Shown here piece after piece: positions 13,243-64,000 of a stretch of DNA of 64,000 bases (positions within the stretch are counted from its first letter, which is position 1; the number at the start of each line of letters is the position of its first letter). The position numbers and the translations under genes are program-made. The notes beneath the pieces were generated by a model. That model was not told where the DNA came from, ran no database searches, and saw nothing but the letters and a program-made list of their open reading frames with translations. Location: contig NC_134031.1 in NCBI RefSeq assembly GCF_964204645.1, positions 11,658,088-11,722,087 on the forward strand. The letters run 5' to 3'. Source of the DNA: Tubulanus polymorphus. Its lineage: Eukaryota > Animalia > Nemertea.

Positions 13243-13321
13243 TTTAATACTAAATTTTTTATTAAAATTGATTTTAGAAGTTATTCATTTATATTTTATT
13301 CATATATATGAATATTTTAAG

Positions 13322-15391: not shown

Positions 15392-15416
15392 TTATGATAC
15401 ATATTTTTAATAAAAA

Positions 15417-18458: not shown

Positions 18459-18460
18459 TT

Positions 18461-22895: not shown

Positions 22896-23987
22896 ATGAA
22901 AAAAGAACAATATTTAAGAGAGTTATATTATAACCCAGAAAGTGAAGTATCATATTCTTACGTTTCAGAACTACGGAATAAAATTAAATCTGATAATGAA
23001 AATAGTAATATAAAATATAGTGAACTAAGATTATGGTTACAAAATCAACCAACATATCAAATTCACAAGAAAATGGATAAAACTTATTTAACAAGAAAAG
23101 TTATGGTTTAATATATTGATCAACAATGGCACGCAGATTTAATTGACATGAAGAACTTAGAAGAATACAACAAAGGATATTTCTGGATACTGAATGTTAT
23201 AGACATATTCAGTAGATACGCATGGTCAATTCCAATCAAAAATAAAACTGGTATAGAAGTAACAAATGCTTTTAAGAATATATTTAAAGAAGCTATTCCA
23301 GATAAGATACAATTTGACGAAGGTAAAGAATTTTATAACAAACATTTCAAAAAACTATTATCTGATAACGATGTAGAATATTTTTCAACACATTCAGATA
23401 AAAAAGCATCTATTATAGAAAGATTTAATAAAACATTGAAAACTAGAATGTGGAAATATTTTACTGCTAATGAAACATATAAATATATCGATGTGTTAGA
23501 TGATTTAGTGAAAGGTTATAATAATTCTAAACATAGTTCTATAAATATGAAACCTATACAAGCTAGAAAAGAAGATAATTCAGAAATAGTTTGGAATAAT
23601 TTATATGGCGCGTTTGTTACACATGATTTCGGCGAACCTAAATTTAAAATAGGACAACACGTAAGAATATCTAAATATAGAAAAACTTTTTATAAAGGTT
23701 ATACCCCTAATTTTACAGAAGAAATATTCAAGATTAAAAAGATAATATTAACTAAACCTTTTGTTTATAAACTAGAAGATCTAAAAGATGAAGAAATATT
23801 AGGTTATTTCTATGAACAAGAATTATCACTTGTACCAAATCCAGATGAAATAGAATACAAAATAGAACAAGTATTGAAAACAAAAACTCTTAAAGGAAAA
23901 AAGTATTCTTTGGTGAAATATAAAGGATATGATGATAAATTTAATGAATGGATTTTATCTAGTAAAATTAAAAGAATAAATGAATAA
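22896..23987 (+). pseudogene. Retroviral-like (rve) integrase with C-terminal chromodomain, one frameshift near 23105
   Basis: QWHADLIDM, IDIFSRYAW, QFDEGKEF, IERFNKTLK; chromodomain YKIEQVL...LVKYKGYDDKFNEWI. Confidence 0.93.
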
Positions 23988-24589
23988 AGATTTATTTATA
24001 TTTGAACCGCATAATATGTTAGTTACTGGAGTAACCAATTGTGGTAAAACACATTTCATATTAGATTTGTTAGAAACTATTTATAAGAATCATTTTGATA
24101 ATATAATATTATTCTGCCCTACTTATGAAATGAATAAAACATATAATAGAGATATAGTTAAGATAAAAAAGTTTAATATATTAAATCCTAAAACAGTAAA
24201 AGAAAATTTAGATAATTGTATAAAAATAGCAATTGATACTTATAGGATCAAATACATTATTCATTGTAGATGATTGCGCAAATTTACATGATTCAAAAGT
24301 GAGAGAAAGTGAGATATGTTATCTAGCTTTCTCTGGGAGACATTTCGGGATAACAACATGGGTTTTAAATCAAAAATATAATTCAATTGTTAAGGACTTT
24401 AGGGAGAATATAAGATTTCTAGTTTTATTTTATAACAAAGATAGAAAATCTATGCAACAATCATTGGAAGAAAATCAAATTATACCTACTGAATTACATG
24501 ATGAATATATGAATAAATTAAAGAATAATAAAGGTTCAGAATTATTACTGAGACTACAATTTCCCTATGAATATAAATTTATAAAATAA
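23980..24589 (+). pseudogene. A32/FtsK-like genome-packaging ATPase, frameshifted
   Basis: Walker A GVTNCGKT, Walker B LFIVDD, GRHFGI motif. Confidence 0.9.
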
Positions 24590-24592
24590 AAT

Positions 24593-25033
24593 TTATAATT
24601 TGGAATATTATAGAAACTAATTTATATATCTATGTACTAGACGTACGAGTAAGAAAGTAAGATTCTTGCCAAGAAAGTAAGAAAGTAAGAATCTTGGTAA
24701 GAATTCTTACGTACGTCTAGTATATAGAGATATAAATTAGTTTTATAATAATTATTCTAAATTTAAATTATAAAAATGAATAAATTATATGTTTTCTCTT
24801 AATCAAAATAAAAATAGATTATATTATAACTATTTCTATACTTAGATTAATAATTTTATGTTTTTAATTTTTATGAAAACTAAATTATATATCTATGTAC
24901 TAGACGTACGAGTAAGAAAGTAAGATTCTTGCCAAGAAAGTAAGATTTCTTGGATTCTTGGATTCTTACCAAGATTCTTACGTACGTCTAGTATATAGTT
25001 ATATAAATTAGTTTTATGATAATTATTCTAATT
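24593..25033. repeat. Two tandem palindromes at the junction of convergent gene blocks
   Basis: Arms AAACTAA(T/A)TTATATATCTATGTACTAGACGTACG and its complement, around AAGAAAGT-type loops, at 24593-24775 and 24871-25033. Confidence 0.9.
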
Positions 25034-26229: not shown

Positions 26230-27073
26230 TTAATACATAACACTATTTAATTGAGAATTTATAATATTTAATTGCGCGTCAGATATTATATAAATGTGCA
26301 TTTTAAAATTTTTGATTCCTTTATTCTTTGTCATGAATAATTGTATTCCATCTTTAGTGTTCTGTAGTTTTTTTCCAGGACCATGTAATGAATTATCCTC
26401 TGTTGTTCTAAAATCTAACCATAATGCATATTTATTTCCGGTATAATAATCAATTTGATTAATATTACAATTTTCAGATGATTTTACTTTTTCATTCATA
26501 AAATGTTTTCTAATTTCTGGCCATTGATCAATCATTCTCATTCCTTGACAAAATATTTTATTTTCTATTCCTTCGATAGTTATTTCTACTTTTGTTATTT
26601 CAGGATTATAATAATTATCAACATTTATTGCACCATTAGTATATGTTGCAATGGTAAAAAATATTAATATACCTTTAATAGATCTTCTTGGGAAGTTAAT
26701 ATTCTCATTAATAATTTCATCATTTGCATTAATAGTAACGGTTTTAAATTTATAAATAAATAAATAAATTATAATCATCTAATGAGAAAACTGTTTTTGG
26801 GCCAATCTTTATTGTTAATTTTTTAATCAAATATCTCCCAACATTATCAACAACATAATTATTATTATTACCGATTACTTTTATATCGGCTGATAAATAA
26901 ATATTATTTGGAACATAAAAAGTATTTTGTGTTAATCGAGGAATTCTAACATATAAAGTTTCATCAGGATTAATATTAGAAGGGTTATGAGTAATTATAT
27001 GATGTGATCTTTCTGCTTTAATAGCATTAGATATTCTATGATTCTCAGAAGGATTGATATAACTCCCACTCAT
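26230..27073 (-). pseudogene. Major capsid protein (double jelly-roll), internally deleted
   Basis: THNPSNINPDETLYVRIPRL...RRSIKGIL...YNPEITKV...ALWLDFRT...ISDAQLNI; lacks ~400 nt present in 62732-63986. Confidence 0.75.
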
Positions 27074-32412: not shown

Positions 32413-35400
32413 TTATAATACATATTTTTATTAAAATTTGATTAACACGTTAGAATTCATTTCATAATCTCATTCTCTTTTGTTTCTCTTTTAAATTTTA
32501 AGTAGTCATCTAAATTGCTACCATAAGCAACTGTATGAATTTCATCATCTAAAATATATCTTTTATCATCAAATGGGTTTAGACTTATCTTTTCAATTTC
32601 TTCAATAAACATTTCATGATCTTCAGATCTTAAACATTTCATCTTATGTTTTCTAACTTCTTCATTGAATAAACAATTGATGTAATCTTTGAAATGAATA
32701 TTCTTTTCTACTACACTTTTGGTTATTCCTTTTAACTTTTTAGCTTCATGTTCTTTAGTTTTATATGAATACATTTTAGATCTAATACCAATGAATTCAA
32801 TCATTTCTTCACCACCTAATTCATCTTTGAATTTACCGGGAACTTTTTTATTATCATTGCTAAACAATCCATGATCTTTAGGATAGTTACTAAAATCAAA
32901 ATGATGTTTTAATGTTTTTAAATCATCAGTTATGTTATCAGTTTTTATCTTTAATATGTAACTGTCAGTATCAAAATATAAGATTTCTATATGTTTTTCT
33001 CCAAAAATTGGTTGTAATACATTATAATAGAATTCATACATTAGTAATTTTGATAATTCTAAAACTGAAGCGCCAACATAGATTGGTTTATTAAATTTCA
33101 TTGATGTTCTTCTCATTTTAACTGCGGCTAAATTTTCATCAAATATTCTGTTACCCATGAACTTAGGATATGTTTGTAAATGTCTAATTCTTTTACCATT
33201 ACTGACTAACTCAATATCATTTCTATTTCTAATATTTTAACAAGTCTTACCATAGAATGCATTATTCATTAACTTGAAGAAATCTTTTTCGAAATCAGTT
33301 TTAGCTTCAGTTCTCTGTTTGGTGTTAAAATCTATATATTTTTCTAACCATTTAGATTGACTAAATGAAATATATCTATGTACTTTTTTTAGAACCATTC
33401 CTTGTTTTAGATAAAACTTTAACATTCTATAATGTACTACATAATTATATTTATCTTCTTGAGTTACCATTAACTTTTCTGTATTAATATGATTTTCGGG
33501 TTTAATTCTTTTTTGATAATTTGATAATTCTTCATGAGTTACAGTTTTATGTTCGGGACAGTATGCTAGATTTCTAGATTTAAATTTAATATGTTCCGGA
33601 TATTCCAAGTCTACAACAAAGAAGTAACCAGTATTTGAATCATCTGAAACATCTAGAATTCTTTTCTTCCAATCAAATTTATCATTATTTTCATGTTGTA
33701 AAACTTCACTTATTTCAAATACTCCATAAGGTTGTGGTTCCATCATTGCCCAACCATATAGATTATTTGCATCTATATATAATAACTTATATCCAGGGTT
33801 ATCATTTACATTGAAATATCTATCACCTAATACACCTGAAACTCATCCTCTTATAGACTTTTCAAACAATAGTAATTGATCTATATTTGTTAACGAATCC
33901 ATTTTTATATCTGTAAATTTTAATCCACAATCCCATGTTAAACCTGGTGATGAATAACAATGACAAGGATCAATGTTAAAATATTTTAGGTTTACATCTC
34001 TAAACCTTTCGAATATATCGGTTAATAATAATACATCTGATTTTAGATATAAATCTACTAATTGCCCATGATTTTTCATTCTAAAATGATTCCAAATATT
34101 CAATGTTCTATTATAGACTTCATCTTTAACGTATTCATTTTTTAATTCATCATAGAATTGTTCTTTCAATAATTCAGTTATGTTAAAATCATTATGATTT
34201 TTATAGAAAGAATATGGAATTGCGCCTTTATATCTCATTAATTTAAAATCATCATTATTTTGGTAGTGTTGCTTTAATATTTTTAATTCATCATCAACTA
34301 ATGATTTTGATAAGTTATCTAATGAACTATTTAAAAATCTATATGAATCTATAAATCTTAGGCAACCAAATTGGAATGATATATAATTCTCAGATGTTTT
34401 AGCTAACATTTTAGATTTATAAGTTGGTATTTTATCTTTTGATCTATTTGAATTTAATCTTTCTATTTCATTATTAATTTCTTCTATTTTATGACATAAC
34501 TGTTTAATGAATAAATGTGCATCATATCCTGCTAGATTATGAAATATAACTGGTACAAAGTTAATTTTCTTAGCTTGTAAGTTACAATTCTCATGTGCAG
34601 CGCCTCTAAACTTTCCATTCAAATGATCATGGTCTCTTACTTTTTTATCTTTATAATTAAATAGTTTTTCACAATAATAACATTTATCTGCAAATACTAA
34701 CGCTTCTTTATCTTCTGTCATAATTATTTCTTTATTTTCATTTAACTTTTCATTAAATTTTATTTTTTGGTGGTTCATCTGAAAAATCATTTTCATTAGA
34801 ATTTAATTTCTTTCTTTTATAATATATTTCTTTTCTATCTTGATCAGTTAATTCTTTATTTAATGATTCAAAATCTCCATATATTACAAATGGTACTTTA
34901 TTTTTGTAATCATATTTTTTGAATTCTAATATTTTATCCTTTTCATTTGGTAAAACTAATTTACAATAATCATGATTTTCACATAATTGTTTATGATTTA
35001 ATAATGTACTTTCATTACTGAATTTATGTAAACATTTTCTACATAGATATATTTTATTATGGTGATCACTTTCTGTTCTAAAGAATAAATCTATTTGTTT
35101 AATCCACACATAATTATTCTCATAATATAATATATCTATAACATCATCTGAATCATAATCTTTTGATAGATATAAAGGTTCTAATGTATAATGTTTTATA
35201 TTGTTACCTTTTGTATTTGGTAATTTGATTAAATCAAATACATTTATCTTTATATTATTATCTCTTTCTATTTTTGGGATGTTTTTAATTATAACAGGAT
35301 ACTTATCCATCTTATAATTGTTTTCAAATGGTTTATAATGAGTTAATCTACAAATATTATAAGTTGCAGGATGTAAACAACTTATTATAGCCCATAGAAA

Positions 35401-35967
35401 ACATTTATCATCTTCATTTTGTACATTTATTACAGCATTAGTTTTAAAGTTTGGTAGTTTAATATAACTCGATGCTTCAATATCTGGTTCTTTATAATAT
35501 GATACATTATTTTCATCGATTGGTTTTGATTTCGTTAACTTATTATATTTTGTATTATAAACATGTAAAGTCATAAATATTATTTCATCAAATATTAAAC
35601 CAGATCCTTCAAAATATTTCTCTTCTATTTTAGTTTTTACTTCATTATAACATTTATTTAATTTATCATCTATATGCTGTTTAGACATAATATTTTGTGG
35701 ATTTATCATCTATATGTTGTTTATATATAATATGTTGTGAATGAGAATTTATATTAATGAATGAATGAATATATTTTTCTCAAATGTATAATACATAGTA
35801 TAATAGTATAATAATTGTTGTACATGATTATTGAATATATACATTCAAGCAGGACAGCCCCAAGCCCTAAGGGCTGTACCTAATTGGGGGGATGCCCTGG
35901 TATGATTTGATACCATGATACAATTAATGAGAATACAATAATAATTAATGACAACATAATTGACATC

Positions 35968-35995
35968 AAAAATAATAATAATAATAATAATAATG

Positions 35996-36031
<36 letters not shown>

Positions 36032-36187
36032 GTAATGGTAATGGTAATGGTAATGGTAATGGTAATGGTTATGGTAATGGTAATGGTAATGGTAATGGTT
36101 ATGGTAATGGTAATGGTAATGGTTATGGTAATGGTTATGGTAATGGTAATGGTAATGATAATAATAATAGTAATAATAATAATGATG

Positions 36188-36219
<32 letters not shown>

Positions 36220-36225
36220 GATAAT

Positions 36226-36268
<43 letters not shown>

Positions 36269-36345
36269 TATATCCATATACATACATATACACATGCATA
36301 CACACATATACACATATATACATACACATATACACATACATATGC
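35968..36345. repeat. Compound microsatellite (AAT)n/(ATGGTA)n/(CATA)n in the LINE 3' UTR
   Basis: Directly visible. Confidence 0.95.
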
Positions 36346-37464
36346 ATAAGATATATAAATATTTTCGAAAATAAATGAAGGTCGGCAACACAAAAAAGGT
36401 TTAATTTTAGAATGAATTAATAGTTCAAGAGTGTGGTTTTTTTGAATCGTGAGATAAAAGAATTTATGGTAGCAGCTTTGCGAAGATGATCATCAGTGTT
36501 CTGCCAAAGAATTGGAGTTCTACTTAAAAAAGAATCATGAAAGAGTTTCGTGGTATGAAATTGGACTCTGGCATTATTCCTGTTTCTAGTGTTATAATTG
36601 TGGAATTTTGAATTTAAATCTAGTAAATTGTAGATAGACAAAGGGAGCTTTTTATGAGAATGATTATATCCAAATTTAAGAATTTCTAATTTGACAAGAT
36701 CGGCAAATTTTAAAATTTTGTATTTTTTGAAAATAGGGGATGTTGGTGCATTGAAGGCAGCATTATCTATGAGTCGTACAGCTTGAGATCAGCATCAATA
36801 TTTAATCCTAGAAATTTACAGTCAGTAGATAATTCTATATTTAAATTTTCTAATTCTATTTTTAAGTTGTCTGACCTCAATAGATGCCTTTTTGGTTTGA
36901 ATAGTAAGTATTTAGTTTTTTCAATGTTCAGGGTAAGTTGATTGGCATGGAACCAGGAGGTTAATAATTTTAAATCATTTTTAGCATTTTGAAACAGTTC
37001 AGAAAGATTCTTTTCAGTACATAGACGGTTTGTATCATCGGCAAATGAGATGGCTTTAGAATGTTTGAGATTATTATTTAGATCGTTAACGTAAACAAGA
37101 AAGAGAAGCGGACCTAAGACTGAGCCTTGTGGTACTCCATGCATAAGCGTGTTGAAAGTCGAGTCAGCATTATTGTAGTGAACATAAATTTTTCTATCTT
37201 TGAGATAACTATGAAACCAGTTGAATGCGTGTCCCCTAATTCCATAGTGATATAATTTATAGAGTAGTTTGTCAATATTTAACAATAATAATAATAATAA
37301 TAATAATATATATATATATATCCATATACATTCATATACACATGCATACACACATATACACATATATACATACACATATACACATACATATGCATAAGAT
37401 ATATAAATATTTTCGAAAATAAATGAAGGTAGGCAACACAAAAAAGGTTTAATTTTAGAATGAA

Positions 37465-40400
37465 TTAATAGTTCAAGAGTGTAGTTTTTTTGAATCGTGA
37501 GATAAAAGAATTTATGGTAGCAGCTTTGCGAAGATGATCATCAGTGTTCTGCCAAAGAATTGGAGTTCTACTTAAAAAAGAATCATGAAAGAGTTTCGTG
37601 GTATGAAATTGGACTCTGGCATTATTCCTGTTTCTAGTGTTATAATTGTGGAATTTTGAATTTAAATCTAGTAAATTGTAGATAGACAAAGGGAGCTTTT
37701 TATGAGAATGATTATATCCAAATTTAAGAATTTCTAATTTGACAAGATCGGCAAATTTTAAAATTTTGTATTTTTTGAAAATAGGGGATGTTGGTGCATT
37801 GAAGGCAGCATTATCTATGAGTCGTACAGCTTTTTTTCTGGATTTTGAAAATAATATTAGTTTGCTCAGAGGAAAGCAGTGGACCCCAGACAACCAGTGC
37901 ATAAATAAGATGACAGTGAATATATGAATTGTAAATAGTTTTTTTCAAAAAACCTGGGAACATATTCTTTACAGTCCTTAGCAGGTACAAATTTTTATTC
38001 ATTTTATCGATAAGCTGTTTAATATGCAAATTCCAATTGAGATCAGCATCAATATTTAATCCTAGAAATTTACAGTCAGTAGATAATTCTATATTTAAAT
38101 TTTCTAATTCTATTTTTAAGTTGTCTGATCTCAATAGATGCCTTTTTGGTTTGAATAGTAAGTATTTAGTTTTTTCAATGTTCAGGGTAAGTTGATTGGC
38201 ATGGAACCAGGAGGTTAATAATTTTAAATCATTTTTAGCATTTTGAAACAGTTCAGAAAGATTCTTTTCAGTACATAGAAGGTTTGTATCATCGGCAAAT
38301 GAGATGGCTTTAGAATGTTTGAGATTATTATTTAGATCGTTAACGTAAACAAGAAAGAGAAGCGGACCTAAGACTGAGCCTTGTGGTACTCCATGCGTAA
38401 GCGTGTTGAAAGTCGAGTCAGCATTATTGTAGTGAACATAAATTTTTCTATCTTTGAGATAACTATGAAACCAGTTGAATGCGTGTCCCCTAATTCCATA
38501 GTGATATAATTTATAGAGTAGTTTGTCAATATTTAACGAGTCAAATGCTTTTGATAGGTCAAGACATATACCCAAAGAAAAATTTCTTTTTTCTAAATTA
38601 GCGATAATGTTACCAATAAAATCAGCTATGGCATGAGTTGTAGAATGGTTTGGTCTGAAGCCATATTGCGTAGTATTTAGAATTTCAAATTTAAACAAGA
38701 AATTATATAGTCGCTTATGAACAAGTTTTTCCAAGATCTTGGATAAGACTGGTAGTAGGGAAATTGGACGGTAATTGTTTAGAGTCTGTTTGCTTCCAGT
38801 TTTATGAAGAGGAATAACCTTTGCTATTTTCATTTTATCTGGGAATTTGCCTTCTTGAAGAGATTTATTACAAAGAATAGTCATAGGATTAATAATTGAG
38901 GGAGCAATAAATTTCAATAGTTTATTGCTTAAAATATCTGGACCCGTACTTTGTTTAGGCGAAAGCTGGTTGATCATTTTTTTATTATTTCCTCACTATT
39001 TGTAGGTTGCAGGAACATAACACTGTCATTTTTATTAGGAAGAAATGCTATGAAATTAGTGGTAGTGTTAGGTATTTTTTCTGAATACTTTCTGCCAACC
39101 GAAGAAAAGAAATCATTAAATGCAAGACTAATTTCGGAATTATCAGTAACTGTTCTTCCATCAATCTTAAAATTTGTCGTAATTGATGTTTTATCATTAG
39201 TCTTGCCAATTAGTTCTTTAATAAATTGCCACATTTTACGACAGTTTTTTCCAAAGGAATTAATTTTGTAATTATGAACGTTGGTCTGATTTATCTAACC
39301 CAATAACTTTTTTGTATAGATTATCACATTTCTTTGAGGATCTCAGAATAGAGTTAGTCATCCACGGCTCAATTAATTTGTTTTTCTTTTTTCTTTTTTT
39401 AATTTCTGGAGCTATACTATTAATAGTATTAGTAATATTTGTCATAATAAAGTCATACGATTCACTACAATTCATATTATCCAAATTTGACCAGTTAACA
39501 TTTAAAAGGGTGTTATTTATTGATTGTATATTTTTAGCATTAAGGTTACGGGAGAAGAATTCATTTGTTGTTGGTCTAACATTATATACAATAGAAACGA
39601 AACAAGGCAAGTGATCCGAAATATCAGTTAGTAGTATTGCACCAGTGTGATTACTATTTAGTTCGGGAGAGAGGTATATGTTATCAATTAGAGTAGCAGT
39701 GGACTTTGTGATTCTTGTAGGTCGCAGTATTGTAGGGCATAGACTATTGTTTAGGTTGATTTCTAAGAATTTTGATGTATTCTTATGACTATTGATCTTA
39801 ATGTAGTCTAAATTCTGATCCATACCAAGAACTATCTCTGATTTTTCGTTATTAATTTTTGTAATTAAAGTTCTGTATATTTCAAGAAACATTAGTTCGC
39901 TATTGCCAGGTACTCTATATAATTCACCAATAATAATTTTCTTTTTAGATTGAGTTTTAGGATAAATTTCTATGAAACAAGATTCAAATTTACCTTCTTC
40001 AAAAATGTCCAAATCAGTTCTCGGGTTGTACGATATATTATCATTAACGTAGATGGCGACTCCTCCTTGAGATAAATTCAGTCTATGATTTTCAATTAAA
40101 TGATAGTTAGATAATTTACAAAGAGGTCCATTTTTATCTGTTAGAAAGGTTTCACATATCATTATGACATCTATAATAATATTTTGATTTTTAAAGATTT
40201 CTATCATAATTTTGAGTTTATCAATTTTTGAATAGAGATTACGTACATTCAGTTGTAAGATATTAAGGTTGTTGGTAGTATTGAAATTATATACATCTTT
40301 CAGGTCACTGGGTTTAATATATGGACATTGATTACTATCTAGAATAAGATCATCATCAATGATTGAATTTAAATAATAATTTTTATCATTAGCTTTTTGT

Positions 40401-40513
40401 TTGAATAATTTAAAAAAATAATTTAGAACAAATACGTAAAACCAAAAAGAAGAAAATTTGATAAGGAAAAAAAAGAAAAAAAAAGAGTTTGTAATAAACA
40501 AAAAAATGCACAA
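37465..40513 (-). pseudogene. LINE ORF2 (APE endonuclease-reverse transcriptase), disrupted by stops and frameshifts
   Basis: LQLNVRNL, ICETFL, ATLIDNIY, SDHLP; NYRPISLL, QYGFR, DLSKAFD, GVPQGSVLGP, FADDT. Confidence 0.93.
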
Positions 40514-41404
40514 AAAGATGCTGACCTTTGACCGCCGTATACGGCAATAGTCAGCTAGTACTTGGTAGGTAGTTGATTAAATCAACTATGAGGCCAAGGC
40601 ATATGTGTCAAGGTTACAAAAGAATCTTATATTTTAGTCAAACAGATTTAGAGATAATATTATTATATATTGATTTATCTTCAGATTTTATAAACTTTAC
40701 TTTAACTGATATACTAATTTTAGGATATTCAACATCAGTTATTATTTTTATTATTTCTTTCATATTTTCTAAATGTTTTTTATTTTCTTCTTGTGTTTTT
40801 CCTTTATGAAATTTAAACTCGATAGCTGCTGGGCCAATATCACTTTTAAATGCTTCGGTTATCTCTATATCTTTTTTATTATCCAATAAATTAATATATT
40901 TTCTTACATCTTCCATGTATGGTCTTTTATTGTTTAATTTATTTTTTATGCTTTTAATTGTCTTCTGTTTCTTATCATTATCTTTATCAAAATAATCTTC
41001 ACCTAAAATATCATTATTCATATTTCTAATATTTCTATATTCTTTTAGATTTTAAATGTTCATTATAATATCTTTTATCACTGAATGATTGATTACATGT
41101 ATCACATTTATATATTTCTTTTTCATTCTTTAATTCATCTAATTTAGTTTCTAATATATCATCTTCATATTCTAATTTCAATTTATTCTCTAAATGTGTT
41201 TTAGTTTTATTGTGTCTTGCTTTTTGGGATTTATCTATATTGATTTTACATGTTGAACAGTAGTACTTATTTGCTTCCATTTTAATACTAAATTTTTTAT
41301 TAAAATTGATTTTAGAAGTTCAATGATTTATATCATGTATTATTTCAATCACACTTTACTAACACTTTTAATGTTTAAAAATCTAACTCATACAAATATG
41401 AATA

Positions 41405-41925
41405 TTGAAATAATGTTGTAAATATATCTATATATCTATTCTATAAGAGCTTACACTTTTATATTGAATAATCTGTCAATTTAAATGTTATTCATGTATA
41501 TGATTATTTTAAGAGTAATAGGGGTAATAGGCTTTCAGGTTAATGGTTGAATGGTCGAGTTCATTAAAAAACAAATTATTAAAAGTAATTTAAAACTATA
41601 ATATATTTTCATAACCGTGTGCATTTCAGTTGAATAATAGAATAATTATTATAATTGAAATATATTTGATTATATGAATTTGTGTATTGTAAATAAATCA
41701 ATTGGTCGCGGAGTGGAGCGGTAGCGAAGCGGAGCGACCAATTGATTTAATACAATATGCTTTTAAAATTAAAATTATTAATATCTTAGAATAAATATTT
41801 AGTTATAATATGAAATGCACACGGTTATGAAAATATATTATTGTTTTAAATTACTTTTAATAATTTGTTTTTTAATGAACTCGACCGTTCGACCTTCGAT
41901 TTGAAAGCCTATTACCCCTATTACT
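41405..41925 (-). repeat. Right TIR of P2 (contains palindrome 41514-41925)
   Basis: Inverted match to 20319-20784. Confidence 0.92.
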
Positions 41926-42555
41926 GATGTGGCTTCTCGTGTCCGTGGTCTGCCAGGAGGAGCGGGCGCTGTCGGTTCCGAGACACTCCGTCAGTTTTGG
42001 CGTGGTCTCCGTAATGAGATGTTGCGCATGGGAACACGCTTTCTCTTTCATTCCAACGCGACCTATTACGAGATCGTAACAGAGGCTAGAAAGATTGAAG
42101 GGGAAACGGAACGGAGAGATTTCAAGTCTGTGGTGCCTCCGAAAAAACTTATGAATTCTCAAGTGTCTTCTAAAGACACACCCGGTCACTCTGAGGATCC
42201 CGCCTCCTCGTGGGAAAGGCGAATGGTGATGAAGCGAATGGCCGCTATCGAGGCTAAATTGGAGAACCGTCCTAGGTTGTGGGTCCCTCCTCCAAGACCT
42301 CCCTTGAGGAGTCAGGTAGGGCAGCGCTACGGAGGAGCTTCTTCGTTTGGGTTCCGTCCAAGGCAGCCCACACCTTCGCAGCAGACGTGTTTTTCCTGTG
42401 GCGGCGTTGGGCATATCTGTCGCGTATGTCCGAGTAGAAACATGGATAACAGGCCTTTGTCAGCCGGTAACGGTAGTTCGGGTGATAGAGATGGTCTCTC
42501 TAATAGAGATGACAGTCTCTCTGGTAATAACAGCTCGTATGACCCAAAAGAGTAA
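41926..42555 (+). pseudogene. gag: Gypsy gag, 3' part with CCHC zinc knuckle
   Basis: LRQFWRGLR...CFSCGGVGHICRVC; continues the 19443-20318 frame. Confidence 0.88.
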
Positions 42556-47372: not shown

Positions 47373-47768
47373 TGTTGCCGGGCTGTTTATTCGGCGGTAT
47401 AATTGATAGCCTCCGTTCGGTGCTGCCACCTTCATGGTCTGCATATAGTTTGAAGTCTTGGCGGGAACAGTGTTAGTTTGTTGGCGGTCGCCTTCCAGGC
47501 AACCACTCTGTGAAATATATGTTGATGTGATTTACACTGTTCCCGCAGGTAAGAAAGCTTCGTATGATTCTGACTTAATTATTTATCATGTGTAATATTT
47601 GTTGGTTAGTTTGTTGGCGGTCGCCTTCCAGGCAACCACTCTGTGAAATATATGTTGATGTGATTTACACTGTTCCCGCAGGTCTTTCGTTGTTGTTTAA
47701 TGTTGGTTGGTGGAGTGGACCTCCGGACAGACGAGGCATATACAGGATTTACAAGAAGCCCCGTCACA
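47373..47768 (+). repeat. 3' LTR
   Basis: Direct repeat of 18063-18458. Confidence 0.97.
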
Positions 47769-47772
47769 TATA

Positions 47773-49044
47773 TTTTATTATCAAAATCATTTTCTGATTC
47801 GAAAAAGAAATCTATTCTTTTAATCCACATATAATGATTCTCATAATATAATATATATATAACATCATTTGAATCATAATCTTTTGATAAATACAAAGGT
47901 TCTATTGTATAATTTTTTATATTTTTACCTTTCGTTTTTGGTAATTTGACTAAATCAAACACATTTATCTTTATATCATTATCTCTTTCTATTTTTGGGA
48001 TACTTTTAATTCTAACTGGATAACTGTCTATCTTATAATCATTTTCAAATTGTTTATAATTGTTAATCTAAAACTATGTGTAATATCTTCTGTTGGATGT
48101 AAGCAACTTATAATTGTCCATAGAAAACATTTATCATCAAAATTTTGTACATTTATTACAGCATTAGTTTTAAATGGTAATTTGATATAACTTGATCCAT
48201 TTATATTATCATCTTTATAATATGATAAATTATTTTCATCAATTTGTTTTGATTTAGTTAACTTATTATATTTTGTGTTATAAACATGTAAAGTCATAAA
48301 TATTATTTCATCAAATATTAAACCAGATCCTTCAAAATATTTCTCTTCTATTTTAGTTTTTACTTCATTATAACATTTATCTTATTTTTCATCTATATGT
48401 TGTTTTGAAATAATATGTTGCGAATGGGAATTTATATTATATATTGGTTCATCTTCAGATTTTATAAACTTAACTTTGACTGATATGCTAATTTTAGGGT
48501 ATTCAACATCAGTAATTATTTTTATAATATTTTTCATATTTTCTAAATGTTTTTTATTTTCTTCTAATGTTTTTCCTTTATGAAATTTAAACTCAATAGC
48601 AGCTTGACCAATGTCACTTTTAAATGATTCGGTTATTTCAATATCTTTTTTATTATTTAATGAATTAATATAATTTTTACATCATCCGTGTATGGCCTTT
48701 TATTGTTTATTTTAGTTTTTATTCTTTTAATTATCTTCTGTTTCTTATCATTATCTTTATCAAAATAATTTTCACCTAAAATATCATCATTCATATTTCT
48801 AATATGACTTTTAGATTTTAAATTTTTTATAATATCTTTTGTTACTGAATGATTGATTACATGTGTCACATTTGTATGTTTCTTTTTCATTCTTTAATTC
48901 TTCTAATTTAGTTTCTAATATATCATCTTTATATTCTAATTTCAATTTATTTTTTAAATGTGTTTTAGTTTTATTATGTCTTGATTTTTGGAGATTTATC
49001 TATATGAATTTTACATGTTGAACAGTAGTACTTATTGCTTCCAT
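47773..49044 (-). pseudogene. pPolB of P3, 5' part
   Basis: Zinc-finger N-terminus, EGSG, SSYIKLP, DDKCFLW, ENHYMWI. Confidence 0.9.
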
Positions 49045-49083
49045 TTTAATATCCAATCTTTTTATTAAAATTGATTTTAGAAG

Positions 49084-49440
49084 TTATTCGAAATCTATTT
49101 CCTGGTGTCCTTTTTCATTCTTACACTTATATATGAAATAGAAATCACCAGAACATAATTCTTCTAAATCTTCACTAGATAATCTATGAAATCTATCCGG
49201 CAAATATGTTTTGAATTTATATTTATTTCCTTTTAATCCTTCATATTCCAAGTGAATAACTAATTTATCTCCATATTTGTTAGAAACTGTATCAATATTT
49301 GGAATTAGATATTTCTTATGAATTGTTAATTCTGTTAACTTCTTAAATTTATAATCTACTGATTTAGCATTTGTGATATCTTTTATTCTATCTAGAAATG
49401 ATTTGTTGTTCTAACTGTGTACTTGTTTACTACTCTCCAT
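49084..49440 (-). pseudogene. Putative SSB homologue, upstream of pPolB in P3
   Basis: Nucleotide homology to 8968-9321; early stop. Confidence 0.6.
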
Positions 49441-49500
49441 TTTAATATCAAATTTTCTATTAAAATTGATTTTAGAAGTTATTCATTTTTATATTTTAAG

Positions 49501-49621
49501 AGTAATAGGGAATATGTTGTTTCGTATCAAAGGTTGAAAGGTCGAAAAATAAATTCGAGTGTGCGAGAATTATTTTTCGACCTTTCGACCTTTGGAATGA
49601 AACAACATATTCCCTATTACT
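49501..49621. repeat. 121-bp terminal hairpin of P3
   Basis: AGTAATAGGGAATATGTTGTTTC...GAAACAACATATTCCCTATTACT. Confidence 0.88.
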
Positions 49622-51149: not shown

Positions 51150-51189
51150 ACCACTCATCACCACAAGTAATTTCTTTTCCTTATAAATG
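51150..51189 (+). repeat. 40-bp inverted repeat, left copy
   Basis: ACCACTCATCACCACAAGTAATTTCTTTTCCTTATAAATG; 37/40 match to the reverse complement of 57511-57550. Confidence 0.9.
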
Positions 51190-54100
51190 GGAGAGAATAA
51201 GACAGAACAAATTGATGTTAATGAAAATCAATATTATTGTCCATATTGTAAAAAATACATTGATAAATCTCAAAAATCGCGTCATGAAAAATCTTCAAAT
51301 CTAAAATATAATATAAAAAATGTTATAGATTTTGAAACTTCAGATAATTCCAATGAAAGAAAAGAACGATTAGAAAATATGAATTTGGATGAAATAAAAT
51401 GTGAAGTTTGTAATGAATTTATAGTAAAAAGGAATTATAATAGACATCTCGAATCACAAAAACACCATCAAAATTTGAGTAATACTGTTTTAGGAAAAGA
51501 TTATTTCGATGATAAACCTCAAAAAGTAAAAAAACCAACTCCAAAAACTAAATCCTTTAGAAACATTACGTAGTAAAATTGGTCCTGCAGCTATTATATT
51601 TAGATTTTTTAAAGGTACAACAATAGAAGATTACAGTAAATTTAATGAAATGATAGAAAAATACTAGATTTGGTAACAGATGTTGAATATCCAAAAATTA
51701 GTATCTCTGGGAAAGTAAGTTTTTTAAAGTCAGAAGAGAAAATGGATTATAATATTCAAACACTCTCTGAAGAAATAATTTCAAAAACGCAAATAAAAGA
51801 GAAGTTAGAAAAAATATTTAATGAATTTAAACGTCATATTGAAGAAAGATATTTTGAGGGTTCTGGTTTATCATTAAATGAAGTTATATTTTTAGATTTA
51901 AATGTTTATAATACAAAAAGGAATAAAACATCAAAAAGTAAAACAATGTTTAAAAATGATTCAAACTTTACAACAGAAAAGGATATTAAAGCATCATCTT
52001 ATATTAAATTACCATTTACAACAAAAGCAGTAATAAATGTTCAAAATGAAGATAATAAATGTTTTCTATGGTCAATTATTAGTTGCTTACACCCAACAGA
52101 AGATATTACGCATAGTTTTAGAATAACAAATTACCGGAAATATGAAACATTATATAAAATTGATCAATATCCAGTAACTATAAAAATGATACCCAAAATA
52201 AAAAAAAATTAATAAGTTAAAAATAAACGTATTCGAATTAATGCAATTACCAAATACAAAAGGTGAAAATATTAAAGATTATACTTTGGAAGCTTTATAT
52301 TTAACAGAATATTATGATGATGAAAATGCTATAGATTTGTTATATTACAAAAAAGATGAAAATGAACATTATATGTGGTAAAAACAAATTGATTTATTCT
52401 TTAGAACAGAAAGTGATTTTAACAGTCATAAAATTTATCTATGTAGAAAATGTTTATCTAAATTCAGAACTGAGAATGCGTTACTAAAACATAAAGAATT
52501 ATGTGATAATAAAGATTTTTGCAAATTAATAATGCCAACAGAAAAAGATTATAAATTGAAATTTACTAATCATAAATTTAAAAATATTGTTCCATTTGTA
52601 ATTTATGGGGATTTTGAATCGTTGAATAAAGAATTAACTGATCAAGATAGTAAAGAAATATATAACAAAAAGCAATTATTAAAATCAATGGATAAAGGAA
52701 ATGAATTAAATGAAGACACAACACAAGACCCGCCAATTATAAATACAATTAAAAAAGTTCATCTAAGAGCTGCTGCTTACGGAATTTATATAAAATCAAA
52801 TTATCCTGAATTATATGAAAGTCGATATATTTCTTTTAGAGGTGAAAATGTAGTTAATGATTTTTGTGACAAAATGATTGAATTAGAAAGTGATTTTGCA
52901 AAATTATTAAACAAAAATAAAAGAATAGTTATGACAAAAGAAGATGAAATTGATTTAATTATGCAACTCATTGTTGTTATTGTGAAAAACGTTTTTATTC
53001 ATTTGATAAAAAAGTTAGAGATCATGATCATTTAAATTCAAAATATCGTGGAGCTGCTCATGAAGATTGCAATTTACAAGCTAAGAAAGTTAATTTCGTA
53101 CCAATATTATTTCATAATTTATCAGGCTATGATACCCATCTATTTATAAAACAATGATCAAAGAAATTGGGCACAATTAATCAAGAAATAGAAGAATATA
53201 ATGCTATGAATGGTGTAAATGTAAGAAAATATGATTTTAAACTATTAGCTAAAACATCTGAAAATTATATTTCATTTCAATTTGGTTGCATTAGATTTTT
53301 AGATTCTTATAGATTTCTAGTAAGTTCATTAGATAATTTATCAAAAAGTTTAGTTGATAATGATTTTGTTATAACTCGATATTATTATCCAAATGAACAA
53401 GATTTTAAATTATTGAGATATAAAGGTGCAATTCCTTATTCATTTTATAAAACACACAATGATTTTAATGTAACAGAATTATTAAAAGATCAATTTTATG
53501 ATCAATTAAAAGAGGAGTATGTGAAAGATGAAGTGTTTAATAGAACATTAAATATTTGGAACCATTTTAAGATGAAAAATCATGGTGAATTAGTTGATTT
53601 ATATTTAAAATCAGATGTTATGATATTGGCTGACATATTTGAAAAATTTAGAGAAGTTAATTTGAATCATTTTAATGTTGATCCTTGTTATTGCTACTCT
53701 AGTCCTGGTTTAACCTGGCAATGTGGTTTAAAATATACAAATGTAGAATTAGATTTATTAAAAGAACCAGACATGGTTTTATTATTTGAAAAATCAATTA
53801 GAGGTGGAATTAGTGGTGTTATGGGAGATAGGTATTTTAAAGCAAATGATGAATATAAATTATTATATATTGACGCCAATAATTTATATGGTTGGGCAAT
53901 GATGCAACCTCAACCATATAAAAATTTTATATTAACAGAAGTTGAAAATGATGATAAAACTGATTGGGAAAGCGCAATTGCGAGTTTGAAAGATGAAGCA
54001 CCAATTGGTTATTTCTTTGTAGTTGATTTAGAATATCCTGAAAATATAAAGTTTAAAACAAGAAACTTACCTCATTGCCCAGAACATTTAACTGTAGATG

Positions 54101-56187
54101 ATAGTTATTTAAGTGAATACCAGAAGAAAATAAAACCGAAAGATCATGTTTTTACAGAAAAATTAATACTTACTCAAAATAATAAATACAATTATATTGT
54201 TCATTATAGAATGTTAAAATTTTATCTAAAACAAGGAATGAAATTAAGGAAAGTACATAGATATATTGAATTTAATCAATCGAAGTGGTTAGAAAAATAT
54301 ATAGATTTCAATACTCAACAGAGAACCATATCAAAAACAGATTTTGAAAAAGATTTCTTCAAATTAATGAATAATAGTTTTTATGGTAAAACATGCGAAA
54401 ATATTAGAAATAGAAATGATATTGAATTAGTAAATAATTCTGAAAGATTAAGACATTCACAATCAAGTCCTAGACATTTAGGAAATAAAAGATTTGAAGA
54501 TTATTTAAAAGCAGTTAAATTAAAAAGAACGTCAATGAAATTTAATAAACCTATATTCATTGGTTCAACTGTTTTAGAAGTATCAAAATTATTAATGTAT
54601 GATTTTTATTATAATGTTTTACAACCACTTTTTGGGGAAAAGCATATTGAAATATTATATTTTGATTCTGTAACAGCTGACACCCCAATATTATTAAAAT
54701 GTAATGATAAAATATTGATAAGAAGAATTTCAGAAATAATTCCAAAACAAAATGAATGTTATATTTCATATGATGAAAAAGAATTAATACAAATAAATGA
54801 ATTAATAGATGTTTGGACAAGAAATGGATGGAAAAAAATTAAAGAATATTATTAGACATAAAACAAATAAGAAAATCTATAGAGTTAGAACTAAATTAGG
54901 GTTTGTAGATGTTACAGAAGACCATAGTTTAATTAAACGAAATGGCGATGAAATAAAACCAACTGATATAAAAATTGGATATGAATTATTACATAAAAGA
55001 TTTTTCCAAAGAATGAATCATATGTCATTCGATGAAATTATTGATAATATTTATAATATAGAACCCGAAACATTAGAAGAAAAAGAATATTTTATCAAAG
55101 GATCTTTCATGGGTGATGGTTCAGCAGGTGTGTATAATTATGTTTGGGGTAATAAATATTGTTAGTATTTATGCAATCAAGACTTGAAATTATTAGAAAG
55201 AATTAAGAAATTCTGTGAAGAAGTTTATTCACATAAAACATTTAGAATCATGGATGTTATGAAATCATCAGCAGTTTATATAATACTTGTAAATAATCCT
55301 AAAGATTTTGCTATAAAATATAATGATGAATTCTATATTCATGCAATAGTGAAAAGTAATACTTCAACTAAAGAAAAGATAGTTCCAGATTATGTATTAA
55401 ATGCAAAAAATAATTTAAGAAAATGGTTCTTCATTGGATTCTACGCAGCAGATGGTGCTAAAAAATTTACAAAAGATAAAAAGATAACCTTTGCACAGAA
55501 AGGAAAAGTTGCTATATCAGGGTTAAATATATTATGTAATTCATTAGGCTTCAATATGAATATTGGATTGATTAAATCTAAACCAAATTGCTTTAATTTA
55601 AGCCATACAGAAAAAGATTTAACTGAAGAAGTTAAAGATTTATTTGAAATATATAACCCAACAGATAATGTTTATGATTTATCAACTGAAGATGGCACAT
55701 TCAACTGTGGATTTCCATTAATTTGCTTCAATACGGATGCGTACATACTAAAAATCAAGACAAATGACATAACAAAAGACTTAAAAACATTAAAACATCA
55801 TTTTGATTTTAGCAATTATCCCAAAGATCATGAACTATTTAGCAATGATAATAAAAAGATTTCTGGTAAATTTAAAGATGAATTAGGGGGTGATGAAATG
55901 ATTGAATTTGTTGGGATAAGAAGTAAAATGTATAGGTACAGAATAAAAGATCATGAAATAAAAAGTTAAAAGGAATAACAAAACATGTGGTTGATAAACA
56001 TATAGAATTTCAAGATTATATAAAGTGTTTATATAACTCAATTGTAATGAAACATAAAATGAATTGTTTAAGATCAGAAAATCACGAGATGTACATTAAT
56101 GAAGTTGAAAAAACTAGTTTGAATCCATTTGATGATAAAAGGCATATTTTAGATGATGGTATAAAAACATTACCTTATGGCCATTAA
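51187..56187 (+). pseudogene. Divergent pPolB of P4 containing an intein
   Basis: C2H2 fingers, DNKCFLWSI, YGDFES, RDHDH, YIDANNLYG, KLMNNSFYGKT, YFD[intein]TDAY, NPFDDKR; several frameshifts and stops. Confidence 0.95.
54667..55732 (+). mobile_element. Intein with LAGLIDADG homing endonuclease at the PolB motif-C (pol-c) site, ~355 aa
   Basis: Block A SVTADTPI, block B VDVTEDHSL, block C FIKGSFMGDG, block D KIVPDYVLN, block E FFIGFYAADG, block F VYDLSTEDGTF, block G ICFN|T. One +1 frameshift near 54840 and one TAG at 55163-55165. Confidence 0.95.
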
Positions 56188-57513
56188 AACAGAAAATCAA
56201 TATCATCATACTCGAAATCACTATTGGCTTCTTCATTTTCATTTAATTGTTCTTGTATAATTTGTTTAGGTTCTTCCATTTCATTTTTCTCATTTAAATA
56301 AAGTTCTATCTTGTACCACATTTCATATCGCTCTCTTTGTTTCTTTTTGTTTGTTAATTCGTCAAATGGAATTATAATATCGATGTTTAAATAATTTACA
56401 ATCTTATTTAAAAAGAATTCATAATTAATTGAATCTGTTATTCTATTTTCCAAATGATACATTAATATTTGTTTGAATGTTTTTTTTTATATTTTCCATA
56501 TCTTCTTCTGTTAATTTAGGTTTTTCATAATAATCGTTAAATAATAAATATAAATACATTTTCTTTTGTTTTCTGTTAAATGTTGATGGAATAATTGTTT
56601 TTATAATATCTTTTTTAGTTATTTCACCATTTTTATTTTCTATTATTTTCATTTTTTCAAGCCATTGCATATATTCTGGTGTATGATCTTCTATAGAAAA
56701 TATTTTAAAAATTTCATCTAGATAAATTAATTTTGGTTCTATGAGAAAATCTCTAGTATTTTCTTCACCCCATAAATTCTTTTGCCATCCACAATCAACA
56801 CAAAATAACACAGTACCTTCTTGTCTTAAATCGCGTAATTACATTGTGGACATTTTCGTTTATAATTTATTGGTAATAGATCTTCATTAAGCTCTTGGTA
56901 TTTTCTTACGTTTTCTTTATGTTTTATTGTTCTATTATGTAGATTTGAATTACTTGTTGTAATAATCAATTTACAATATTTACAATAATATGTTTTTCTT
57001 GTTAATTCATTATATTGTTTTTCTAACTTTTCAACTGTTTCTTTATTATCTGGTAACGTTTTCTCATATTTTATTTTTTCTAATAAATTATTTTTTCTTT
57101 CATTGAATTCAGTTTCAAATTAATTAGAAATTTTATCTATATGTACTTTACGAAATTGATGATTCTCCCAATCTTCTATATTTTCAGGGCTATATTTTAT
57201 TCGACAAGGCTCACAGAAATGATCTTTTATATTATCCTTATCATAGAATAAGAAAGGTCTTTTCCAAATAATGTCAGGTTCAACTTCAACAGAATTACTA
57301 TTACTTTCATTACTATCAACATTAGCCGTTGCGCCATTAATTTTACACTTCTCTGAATGTTTTTTAACATAATTTCTTGAGAATAATTTATTACATTTTG
57401 GACAGTTTAGTTTAGGGGGTTTATAATTTTCATCATGTTTTTTCATATGTCGAGCCATATTACTTTTTTCTTAGAAGTTCACCACAAATTTCACATGCTA
57501 TCTTCTCATCCAT
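56184..57513 (-). pseudogene. Multi-zinc-finger ORF(s) specific to the P4 module
   Basis: TAAATG start at 57513 inside the right IR; CEIC...HMKKH, CPKC...HSEKC, CEPC...H...H, CKYC, CPQC and CVDC motifs; broken by stops and frameshifts. Confidence 0.6.
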
Positions 57514-57550
57514 TTATTAGGGAAAAAAATTACTTGTGGTGATGAGTGGT
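57511..57550 (-). repeat. 40-bp inverted repeat, right copy
   Basis: CATTTATTAGGGAAAAAAATTACTTGTGGTGATGAGTGGT. Confidence 0.9.
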
Positions 57551-57571
57551 AATTTTTTTATGTTATAAATA

Positions 57572-58321
57572 ATGGTAGAATTAAAAGAATACAGAATATT
57601 TGTTGATTCTAGAAAACTTACAAATTATCAATCACATAATTTAATAGTTCAATTAGATAGAGAATTTAAGAATTGTGTAGATTTAAAATTAGTTAATATA
57701 AGTTTATGTAACTCATTTTACAATATATCGGATAAAAGTTTTGATCATAGATTGTTTATGATTCATGATAAAAATATGGATAAATAGTATCATCTATTTC
57801 TAAGACCAGGATTATATAATTTAGAAACATTATCTCAAGAAATTAATAGAAGAGCTCGGTTAAAAGTGGGTGAATCTGTTGGGTTTAACATTAAATTTAA
57901 TAAAATTGATAGTACTTATAAAATAAGAATAAAGTTAACTAATGAACAATATAAATTCATAGTAAGAAAACCATTAGCTAAAATGCTAGGAGTTAATCCA
58001 AATAAAGTTTATTCAAATGTTTATACTACGCCAAATATAATACCTTTTACGCACTTCTATATTTATTGTAATTTAATTGATCCTACAAAAACATTCGAAG
58101 CAACTAAAGATACAATTTGTAATTCTGGTTTATTAAATATTTTACCATTAAAAAATGTCAAACAATTTGGAACTCAAATAAATTATAATTTAACAGAATG
58201 TGATTTAAAACCTTGCATTCCACATTTCAATAATTTTAAATTAGAAATAAGAAATCATAATGGTTATTTAATTGATTTGAATAACTGTCCTGTAATTTAT
58301 GAATTAGTTATAAGATGTTAA
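57572..58321 (+). pseudogene. Minor capsid (penton) protein, internal stop
   Basis: Homologous to the P1 and P2 pentons. Confidence 0.7.
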
Positions 58322-58343
58322 GAGTACTTTTTTCACTATATAA

Positions 58344-58700
58344 ATGAATATAACTGTTGGACCGAGTATATGTTTTGGATTTGATTTTAAACGTGAGAAA
58401 GAAATGAAATTTAACATTAATGATGTAATTACACATATCAAAAATATTGCATTTTCTAATGAAACAACATTTGAGTATGAAACAACAATAGATAAAGAAA
58501 CTTAAAATGTAGAAACGATTACTAATTTAATTAGAGAATCTTTAAGATTTTATGAATTAGATGAAGATTTTATCATCGATGATATTAAAAAAATAATAAT
58601 TGAAATATATACAAATAAAACTAGTAATGAAATAAATGTTGAATTAATCATCGCTAAGATAACTAAATATTTTGAAGATAGTAATTTTTTTGATAAATAA
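58344..58700 (+). pseudogene. MNITVGPS-family hypothetical protein, internal stop
   Basis: Nearly identical to the P2 copy. Confidence 0.6.
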
Positions 58701-58922
58701 ATGAGTGATAATAAGTGGATAATAACTGGATTATATAATGGAGCATTACTATCAGTTGGAACTGTTGGTTATTCAATGATATTTAAAAAAGTATTTAAAA
58801 TGGGAAGTGTTAATGTTGATAGATTTGATATAAATGATATTTTAAAATTAACATTAGCAGTTACTTTATCTAATTTAACTATTGATTATTTGGAAAAACA
58901 AAAATATATTCCTCCCATATAA
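58701..58922 (+). CDS. Small hydrophobic protein (73 aa)
   Basis: Intact; homologue of 30692-30913. Confidence 0.75.
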   Translation: MSDNKWIITGLYNGALLSVGTVGYSMIFKKVFKMGSVNVDRFDINDILKLTLAVTLSNLTIDYLEKQKYIPPI

Positions 58923-58946
58923 ATGCGTAATTATTTTACTAAATAA

Positions 58947-59369
58947 ATGGCTTCTGCAATTATAACGATTATAGGATCAGCAATTGTTAACGCTTTAGCA
59001 TTTACTGGTGGCGGTTATTCATTTAAGCATATTGATAAAAATAGTTCGTTAGGAGAACAAAGAAGACATAATTTAGCATTAGAGAAATTTGATAAAGCAG
59101 CAGAAGAATACAGAGAAAAACGACAAAGCTATATCGATTATATTAACAAGGAATTATATGATCAGAAGATTTCACATAGAGATTTTCAATCAGTTGATGA
59201 TGCAATGAGTTTATATAACGCAGTAACCAATAAAGAAAAATTACATCTATACAAACCTAAATTATCAGATTATTATACCCCAAGTAAAGAACAACAGAAA
59301 TATGAAATAATTTGGATTTTAGGTGGAACAGTTATTGTTATATTTGTAGCATATAAATTTACTAATTAG
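58947..59369 (+). CDS. Small membrane-associated protein (140 aa)
   Basis: Intact; homologue of 30245-30667. Confidence 0.75.
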   Translation: MASAIITIIGSAIVNALAFTGGGYSFKHIDKNSSLGEQRRHNLALEKFDKAAEEYREKRQSYIDYINKELYDQKISHRDFQSVDDAMSLYNAVTNKEKLHLYKPKLSDYYTPSKEQQKYEIIWILGGTVIVIFVAYKFTN

Positions 59370-59388
59370 TAATTTTTTTTCTAAATAA

Positions 59389-59823
59389 ATGGAAGATAAA
59401 GTTGATAGTATTGATATTATTCCTCATGATATCAATAAAACTAAATTAAAAAACATATTTAGAAAAACAAATATTAGAATTTGAAAGTGACTTAAAGATA
59501 AAAAGAAAAAATATTCAAAAAGTAAAATTATATATTATCTTATTATTAGTGGTTCGGTTACAATTAGTTCTGTAATAACATTTCTAGCAATATTCAGTCC
59601 ATTAACACCTTTAGCTATATCAATTGGTGTATTAGGATTAAGTTCAAGTGTATTAACTGGTATAAGTTCAAAATTAAATATAAAAAGTAATAAAGAAAAA
59701 ATTAAAACTAATATAAAAGAAATTAATAAATTGAAGAATACACTAGATTATATGATAAGTTTAAATGGTCATATAACAGTTGAAGAACAAGATAAATTAT
59801 TAAAAGAATTAATAAATTATTAA
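59389..59823 (+). pseudogene. Two-TM protein, frameshifted
   Basis: Homologue of 29799-30224. Confidence 0.65.
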
Positions 59824-59839
59824 TTTTTTAATTAAATAA

Positions 59840-61229: not shown

Positions 61230-61245
61230 TTTTTTTATTATATAA

Positions 61246-62688: not shown

Positions 62689-62731
62689 TGAATATGATTA
62701 AAAATAGATAATTAATTTTTTTGTTAAATAA

Positions 62732-63986: not shown

Positions 63987-64000
63987 AATTTTAATTTTAA

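Follow-up and report, generated by a model that had tools for sequence, protein, structure and literature searches.

Imperfect terminal palindromes of nested Polintons as candidate fold-back telomeres

The Polinton ends found in the window, the whole 64,000-nt stretch of DNA that was analysed, are imperfect palindromes of 120-410 bases, and their arms change together between subfamilies. The palindromes were postulated to be fold-back telomeres, which would repair and present the 3' end beside protein priming; the chances of this being correct were judged to be about even.

Nested Polintons and their genes

Self-comparison and domain scans resolved the window into a nest of four Polinton copies, A to D (Table 1). 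A Gypsy element interrupts Polinton C and itself hosts Polinton A, which sits in the gag-like ORF of the Gypsy element, with a PNMA match to the left and a zinc knuckle to the right. Within Polinton A, a LINE-like reverse transcriptase/endonuclease insertion at ~35.8-40.6 kb interrupts pPolB. Polinton B terminates against Polinton C sequence; an extra CT at 13717-13718 was considered as part of its end and rejected, since the bases after 13716 match the interior of Polinton C, which places the end of B at 13716. Polinton D (51187-64000) had no terminus within the window.

Table 1. Coordinates of the elements, genes and termini in the window
Feature	Position	Strand	Remarks
Polinton A	20319-41925		~17 kb without LINE
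Polinton C	13717-18062 + 47770-49621		interrupted by Gypsy element
Gypsy LTRs	5' LTR 18063-18459; 3' LTR 47373-47769	+ (5' LTR)	98.5% identical (self-comparison)
Left target-site duplication of A	20313-20318	+	5/6 bases equal the right copy, 41926-41931
Left TIR of A	20319-20784	-
Left terminal palindrome of A (L20)	20319-20677	-	orientation relative to element as R41; 55-nt inner-arm deletion
Right TIR of A, 521 nt	41405-41925	+	reaches ~107 nt further inward than palindrome
Right terminal palindrome of A (R41)	41512-41925	+	inner arm 41512-41628 with 2 extra bases, asymmetric core, outer arm 41811-41925
R41 inner stem and G-rich apex	41700-41743	+	overlapping GC-GNA-GC units
Right terminal palindrome of B (R13)	13320-13716	+	core long as in A; outer block resembling that of C
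Right terminal palindrome of C (R49)	49499-49621	+	123 nt; arms of 52 nt; short loop of another type, devoid of GC-GNA-GC units
rve integrase with chromodomain	23112-23984	+	Pfam rve 6e-8, Chromo 1e-4; motifs found
A32-like packaging ATPase, two frames	23980-24586	+	Pox_A32 3e-5, 7.5e-4
Probable major capsid protein, broken	26233-27073	-	weak Capsid_N below Pfam cut-off; homologues in related loci
pPolB of A, in pieces	32460-41319	-	LINE-interrupted
pPolB of B, broken	9535-13284	-	zinc fingers, predicted TP domain (GSG), OTU (Cys, His), EndoVII-like HNH insert, polymerase motifs

The elements are Polintons by their pPolB, integrase, ATPase, TIR and TSD. The size of A without the LINE, its TIR and its AG...CT ends fit the Polinton/Maverick range of 13-25 kb, and its near-matching 6-bp duplication agrees with the 5-8-bp TSD criterion; the 5/6 match refers to A, as the partner flanks of B and C lie outside the window. 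The gene set of A comprised the integrase with chromodomain, the A32 ATPase, the probable capsid protein and pPolB, all decayed. The capsid candidate gave no PDB sequence match, and neither a Pfam nor a motif match to an adenain-like protease was obtained from the decayed copies in the window.

The pPolB profile match was to DNA_pol_B_2 (9e-18). Intact relatives consist of one ORF of 1,319-1,365 aa each, with 75-78% identity, and the named homologues, from a spider and a sea anemone, share 37%, which makes an invertebrate animal the probable host. For the relative L001 (78% identical), a structure model of the first 440 aa had a pLDDT of 79. In a fold search, its residues 11-142 resembled the little-finger fold of Y-polymerases (Z 8.3, rmsd 2.9, 104 aligned) and residues 172-295 resembled viral OTU domains (Z 7.5, rmsd 3.5, 99 aligned), both Z values lying close to the tool's stated background. 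The order of the two domains in the model is that of the Polinton TP followed by OTU in the accessible text of PMC11161782. Across 78 homologues, the Ser of the loop that precedes the last strand was present in 74, the OTU Cys in 77 and the His in 76, and the GSG and OTU Cys motifs were found in all four pPolB copies of the window. From these models and motifs, pPolB appears to keep a predicted terminal-protein domain and OTU protease.

The EndoVII-like HNH motif was also intact in the four window copies. The corresponding family, PF02945, is common across this pPolB clade, and the idea of a dedicated resolvase was therefore down-weighted. Nucleases of the HNH and VSR families can both act on mismatched DNA, and a link to the imperfect terminal stems is possible. 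An HNH insert in the clade, and HNH or VSR nucleases in pPolB2 polymerases, are described in the accessible sections of PMC10748475.

Several further features of the nest were observed. The gene order of A differs from that of C (13717-18062), where A's subterminal region follows pPolB and an HNH-like ORF; in the relative L001 the integrase block likewise lies downstream of pPolB. The pPolB of copy D carries an insertion at 54809-55966 with weak intein and LAGLIDADG-like matches (E ~0.02), whose Pfam families are shared by the homologue P0012, and extra minus-strand ORFs follow at 56187-57470, one with a weak poxvirus VLTF3-like match (E 0.006). Between the converging gene blocks of A are two related hairpins of 130-140 nt (24614-24743 and 24876-25015; z -14.0 and -11.7), their arms measuring 34 nt and their loops holding short tandem repeats; they could be a terminator, an internal origin or a MITE. 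Inside the LINE-like insertion, 36223-38537 contains internal duplications of 500-560 nt with 98-99% identity, reflecting recent duplication or an assembly artefact. At 5580-6458, a 49-nt unit is repeated 18 times in tandem.

The terminal palindromes

The terminal motif AGTAATAGGG was found exactly at 13322, 20319, 41514 and 49501 on the plus strand and at 13707, 20666, 41916 and 49612 on the minus strand. The eight exact occurrences, plus one match elsewhere with one mismatch, compare with 3.35 expected, and a count of nine was reached in none of 100 shuffles. The palindromes are bounded by AGTAATAGGG...CCCTATTACT. DNA folding gave -134.8 kcal/mol for 41512-41925 (z -27.2 against shuffles), -76.1 for 20319-20677 (z -15.3), -116.9 for 13320-13718 (z -21.7) and -49.3 for 49499-49621 (z -18.0), so that all four termini present in the window fold back, with z from -15 to -27. 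A preliminary description of the DNA had named three stretches as Polinton termini in which each end can also pair with itself; all three are real palindromes bounded by the terminal motif and the pairing was borne out by folding, while the short fourth terminus had been missed. The outer stem, AT-rich bubble, inner stem and GC-rich apex that it had described were seen in the centroid fold of 41512-41925. Its outer stem of ~115 bp holds for this end, where the 115-nt arms are 93% complementary, and does not hold for 20319-20675, where the inner-arm deletion leaves a stem of ~15 + 49 bp.

The core ranged from 17 to ~180 nt across the ends. Exact GC-GNA-GC units numbered two in R41, four in L20 and two in R13; eight of the ten matches in the window thus lie in the three long apices, on the 3'-terminal strand, and none in R49. 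GNA mini-hairpins were not predicted by ViennaRNA, their stability resting on the accessible text of PMC5449611. As R49 is devoid of the GNA array, the core is dispensable, and as B combines the outer block of C with the core of A, the ends are mosaic. No Rfam match was found at 41300-42000.

Comparison of R41 with R13 over the outer 24 pairs revealed seven differing columns, all seven compensatory and all Watson-Crick. This coincidence has a chance of 3e-6 if the events were independent, counting position alone; the seven columns may, however, represent one block-copy event. Between R13 and R49, one compensatory change and one one-sided change to G.T were seen.

Raw reads from one run (1,934 million letters; 10,091 unphased reads on 41150-42100) were then compared with R41, in which the positions of partner columns sum to 83439. 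Position 41529 was changed in 801 of 1531 reads (52%) and its partner 41910 in 1192 of 2038 (58%), and the changes pair. Those at 41622 (787/1100, 72%) and 41817 (609/1464, 42%) also pair, at unequal frequencies. One-base insertions after 41591 (154/1092, 14%) and 41843 (166/1532, 11%) match, whereas deletions at 41571 and 41576 (461/888 and 636/849) compare with 189/1738 and 85/1514 at their partners. The differences listed included 14 arm substitutions, of which 41862 and 41863, in an indel-rich run, were left out and 12 were tested. All but one of the 12 retain pairing on the 3'-terminal strand: four form two compensatory pairs, three correspond to mismatches private to R41, two convert a wobble to a standard pair, two convert a standard pair to G.T and the remaining one breaks a pair beside the bubble. 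The arms thus change together between subfamilies, and most family members appear from the reads to keep the inner arm; neither an absence of covariation nor a lack of the inner arm in most members, either of which would have refuted the preliminary description, was seen.

Read depth was ~1,110-1,310 over the core, ~1,170 over the inner flank and up to 2,280 over the outer arm, against 30-47 in the Gypsy flank; from these depths the copy number of the family can be given as high. Run X1, a marine metagenome (share 0.07), matched in just three short pieces and gives no indication of habitat. At 41925, 1,111 reads leave the reference with unlike flanks (agreement 0.34), which fixes the end of the family there. 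Piles of loose ends at 41523 (243 reads), 41551 (231) and 41869 (293) point to additional subfamilies whose cores differ, and the short type is therefore probably not one decayed copy.

Relative to the element, the asymmetry runs the same way in all four ends of the window. No strand change occurred among the 15 of 59 read joints listed, and the arm-diagnostic sites 41548 and 41552 were absent among the 40 of 156 differences listed, the lowest share listed being ~35%. These data argue against 50:50 flip/flop, as had been suggested by analogy to parvoviruses and poxviruses, and are compatible with a minority of flipped ends.

A proposed fold-back telomere and its alternatives

Read from the inside outwards, all four ends begin with AGAGTAATAGGG and stop at CCCTATTACT, so that the integrated end falls 2 nt short of the inner copy. 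The outer end is AGTAAT and the inner copy is AGAGTAAT; the two extra bases, AG, are found only on the inner side in each of the four termini, and could be ordinary flanking sequence. In the predicted fold of the 3'-terminal strand, the 3' base is paired and AG provides the next template bases. Despite their differing sequence, the three intact ends pair perfectly over their outer 23-25 pairs; wobbles cluster next, at pairs 24-39, and all three ends share the wobble at pair 35. The mismatches of the 3'-terminal strand over the four ends comprised 16 G.T and 4 A.C, or 11 and 4 when counted over distinct sites (p = 0.06). This strand folded better than the other in all four ends, by 1-13 kcal/mol; a single strand could also form a longer TIR-TIR panhandle.

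Retroviral integrases trim 2 nt, and the Polinton integrase would similarly remove two bases from each 3' end, the free genome ending in AGAG. A single-stranded end, arising in vivo after excision or strand displacement, would allow the freed 3' end to pair with the inner copy and so become protected. pPolB would then fill in the two missing bases and stop, although on this primer-template the polymerase might run past 2 nt. The restored AG repeat would suit jump-back initiation, which is described for adenovirus in the accessible text of PMC5449611. The folded end would be presented to the element's own polymerase, with predicted terminal-protein priming to follow. Repair of the folded end would also homogenise the arms, which would explain why these evolve together while a few wobbles persist. 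Given the predicted TP domain and OTU kept by pPolB, the hairpin probably adds to protein priming; retention of the TP domain fits end repair or presentation better than a replacement of protein priming. As put forward in the preliminary description, each end might by itself regenerate a duplex origin. That the lineage keeps a spare untrimmed copy of the terminus as its fold-back arm, and rebuilds from it the two bases lost at integration, is a more tentative and less probable part of the proposal.

Some of the same observations would also fit a functionless by-product, namely one template-switch duplication with occasional fold-back or cruciform repair keeping the arms alike. The compensation is block-like and confined to the outer 24 pairs, the core varies in length, L20 has lost 55 nt of its inner arm and related Polintons do without a fold-back copy. 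We consider this rather unlikely: the palindrome is retained in at least three sequence types with an exact end register, the wobble at pair 35 survives while its neighbours are homogenised, and long palindromes are usually lost unless selected. Parvovirus-like self-priming, in which whole-strand synthesis would start from the 3' hairpin and the resulting hairpin or cruciform would be nicked or resolved by pPolB through its EndoVII-like domain, is unlikely too. It has in its favour the folded 3' end, a ready primer-template in the predicted fold, the intact EndoVII-like motifs and the model proposed for protist virophages and PLVs in the accessible passages of bioRxiv 10.64898/2026.07.28.741278. 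It is opposed by the absence of flip/flop from the four ends and the read rows listed, by the conserved TP-like and OTU domains, by the clade-wide occurrence of PF02945 without a demonstrated tie to hairpin ends, and by the Pfam scans, which gave no HUH/Rep gene among the ORFs scanned, several ORFs being unassigned.

The absence of flip and flop forms from the same ends and reads also counts against covalently closed hairpin telomeres of the poxvirus kind, opened on integration. With closed ends, the terminal protein apparently kept by pPolB would lack a 5' end, and such telomeres are very improbable despite the AT-rich, incompletely paired terminal loop, which is as in vaccinia (accessible text of PMC8956199). 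A role as duplex, with the inverted copy doubling the binding sites for origin, integrase or packaging, or holding the pPolB promoter, and with incidental folding, is improbable as well. The first ATG of B's pPolB is only 78 nt from the inner arm and the apex pentamer repeats are possibly protein-binding iterons, but the compensation spans AT-rich stretches and indels, and the wobble bias is strand-specific, which is unexpected for duplex sites. Finally, the terminal motif at both sides implies that the integrase may accept the palindrome by itself, in line with the earlier suggestion that it could be mobilised as a MITE. None of the four window copies is solo or has a duplication flanking the palindrome, none of the six largest piles of loose ends listed lies at the inner edge and the inner-flank depth equals that of the core; an independent or mobilised MITE was accordingly given very little credence. 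A minority of solo copies could still lie among the 316 loose-end rows outside the listing.

Relatives and known systems

Of 90 pPolB loci, four begin with a Polinton-like end motif, three of them distinct (L012, L016 and L035/L083), and no fold-back copy was found within 700 nt of these ends. The L016 end folds no better than shuffles (-25.2 versus -26.3 +/- 4.4). Three Polinton-like ends with related pPolB thus lack the fold-back copy, which is therefore not a general need. Short-read contigs tend to break at hairpins, so that fold-back ends would be undercounted among the 90 loci; the closest relative, L001, breaks off at the start of pPolB. The window-specific 18-nt motif and a short gapped end motif gave no matches in viral contigs, and the single-protein locus search gave no loci. 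A long gapped end motif retrieved 10 loci; the four checked were not palindromes (13-20/50 pairs) and none of the 10 passed a 14-nt fold-back test.

In size, TIRs, TSD of ~6 bp and AG...CT ends, as well as in the rve integrase, A32 ATPase and TP-OTU-pPolB with HNH insert, the elements resemble the Polintons/Mavericks with pPolB2 as described in the accessible parts of PMC10748475, PMC11161782 and PMC8097293. They differ from those in their end motif, AGTAAT as opposed to (AGT)2 or (AG)3, and in that each TIR end is itself a palindrome. The strings 'hairpin' and 'palindrom' are absent from the accessible text of PMC8097293 and PMC10748475. Palindromic ends in pPolB Polintons were not found in the open-access literature searched, including the accessible parts of these two papers, PMC11296320, 10.1101/697771 and 10.1101/2022.07.28.501842.

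Terminal palindromes with proposed hairpin priming are reported for virophages and PLVs of Halocafeteria seosinensis in the accessible passages of bioRxiv 10.64898/2026.07.28.741278. There too, the palindromes lie inside TIRs beside the TSD of integrated, rve-encoding elements. They are, however, 52 nt long (subtype 5) and found preferentially with non-pPolB replication genes, although the supplements may list pPolB cases, whereas those of the window are 120-410 nt, imperfect and covarying, and belong to a pPolB element keeping a TP-like domain. Covariation, orientation and a 2-nt offset were not found in the same passages. To the hairpin-ended Polinton-like elements of protists, which are non-pPolB, the present ends add a pPolB family of high copy number whose host is probably an invertebrate animal.

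The closest working analogue may be the fold-back telomere repair of Streptomyces. In the accessible text of PMC5449611, up to four bases missing from the 3' end are restored by Tap, the template being folded-back DNA that bears GNA-loop hairpins; shared with the window are a linear replicon primed by a terminal protein, a folding 3' end, GNA loops and, as proposed here, fold-back repair. The Streptomyces system differs in being bacterial, with an internal origin, several short palindromes, the Tap primase instead of a B-family polymerase, and no integration. According to the same text, no repair of this kind had been described for replicons of the adenovirus or phi29 type. Parvovirus ITRs and poxvirus telomeres likewise have an imperfect terminal palindrome with an asymmetric core, and in vaccinia the hairpin mismatches are needed for maturation (for poxviruses, accessible text of PMC8956199). 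Those viruses occur in flip and flop forms and use a resolvase or nicking by Rep, in contrast to the single orientation and the predicted terminal protein of the window's ends.

If true, hairpin templating combined with protein priming would be a hybrid not reported for B-family protein-primed replicons, and would account for the recovery of a primable end by an integrated Polinton. How the terminal protein is dealt with on integration is called unclear in the accessible text of PMC11161782, and no direct test of the Polinton excision model was found. The fold-back telomere specifically predicts that free ends exceed the integrated ones by two bases, with the inner arm as template; long, short and deleted ends are available as natural variants.

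Other palindromes were observed among the relatives. L016 is a complete Polinton (ends at 1-720 and 14550-15051) whose TIRs contain TTAGGG telomeric repeats, and it has a 166-nt palindrome 250 nt from its left end. In L085, a 184-nt palindrome (4657-4840) with inward-facing Polinton-like end motifs is located between divergent genes, just upstream of pPolB.
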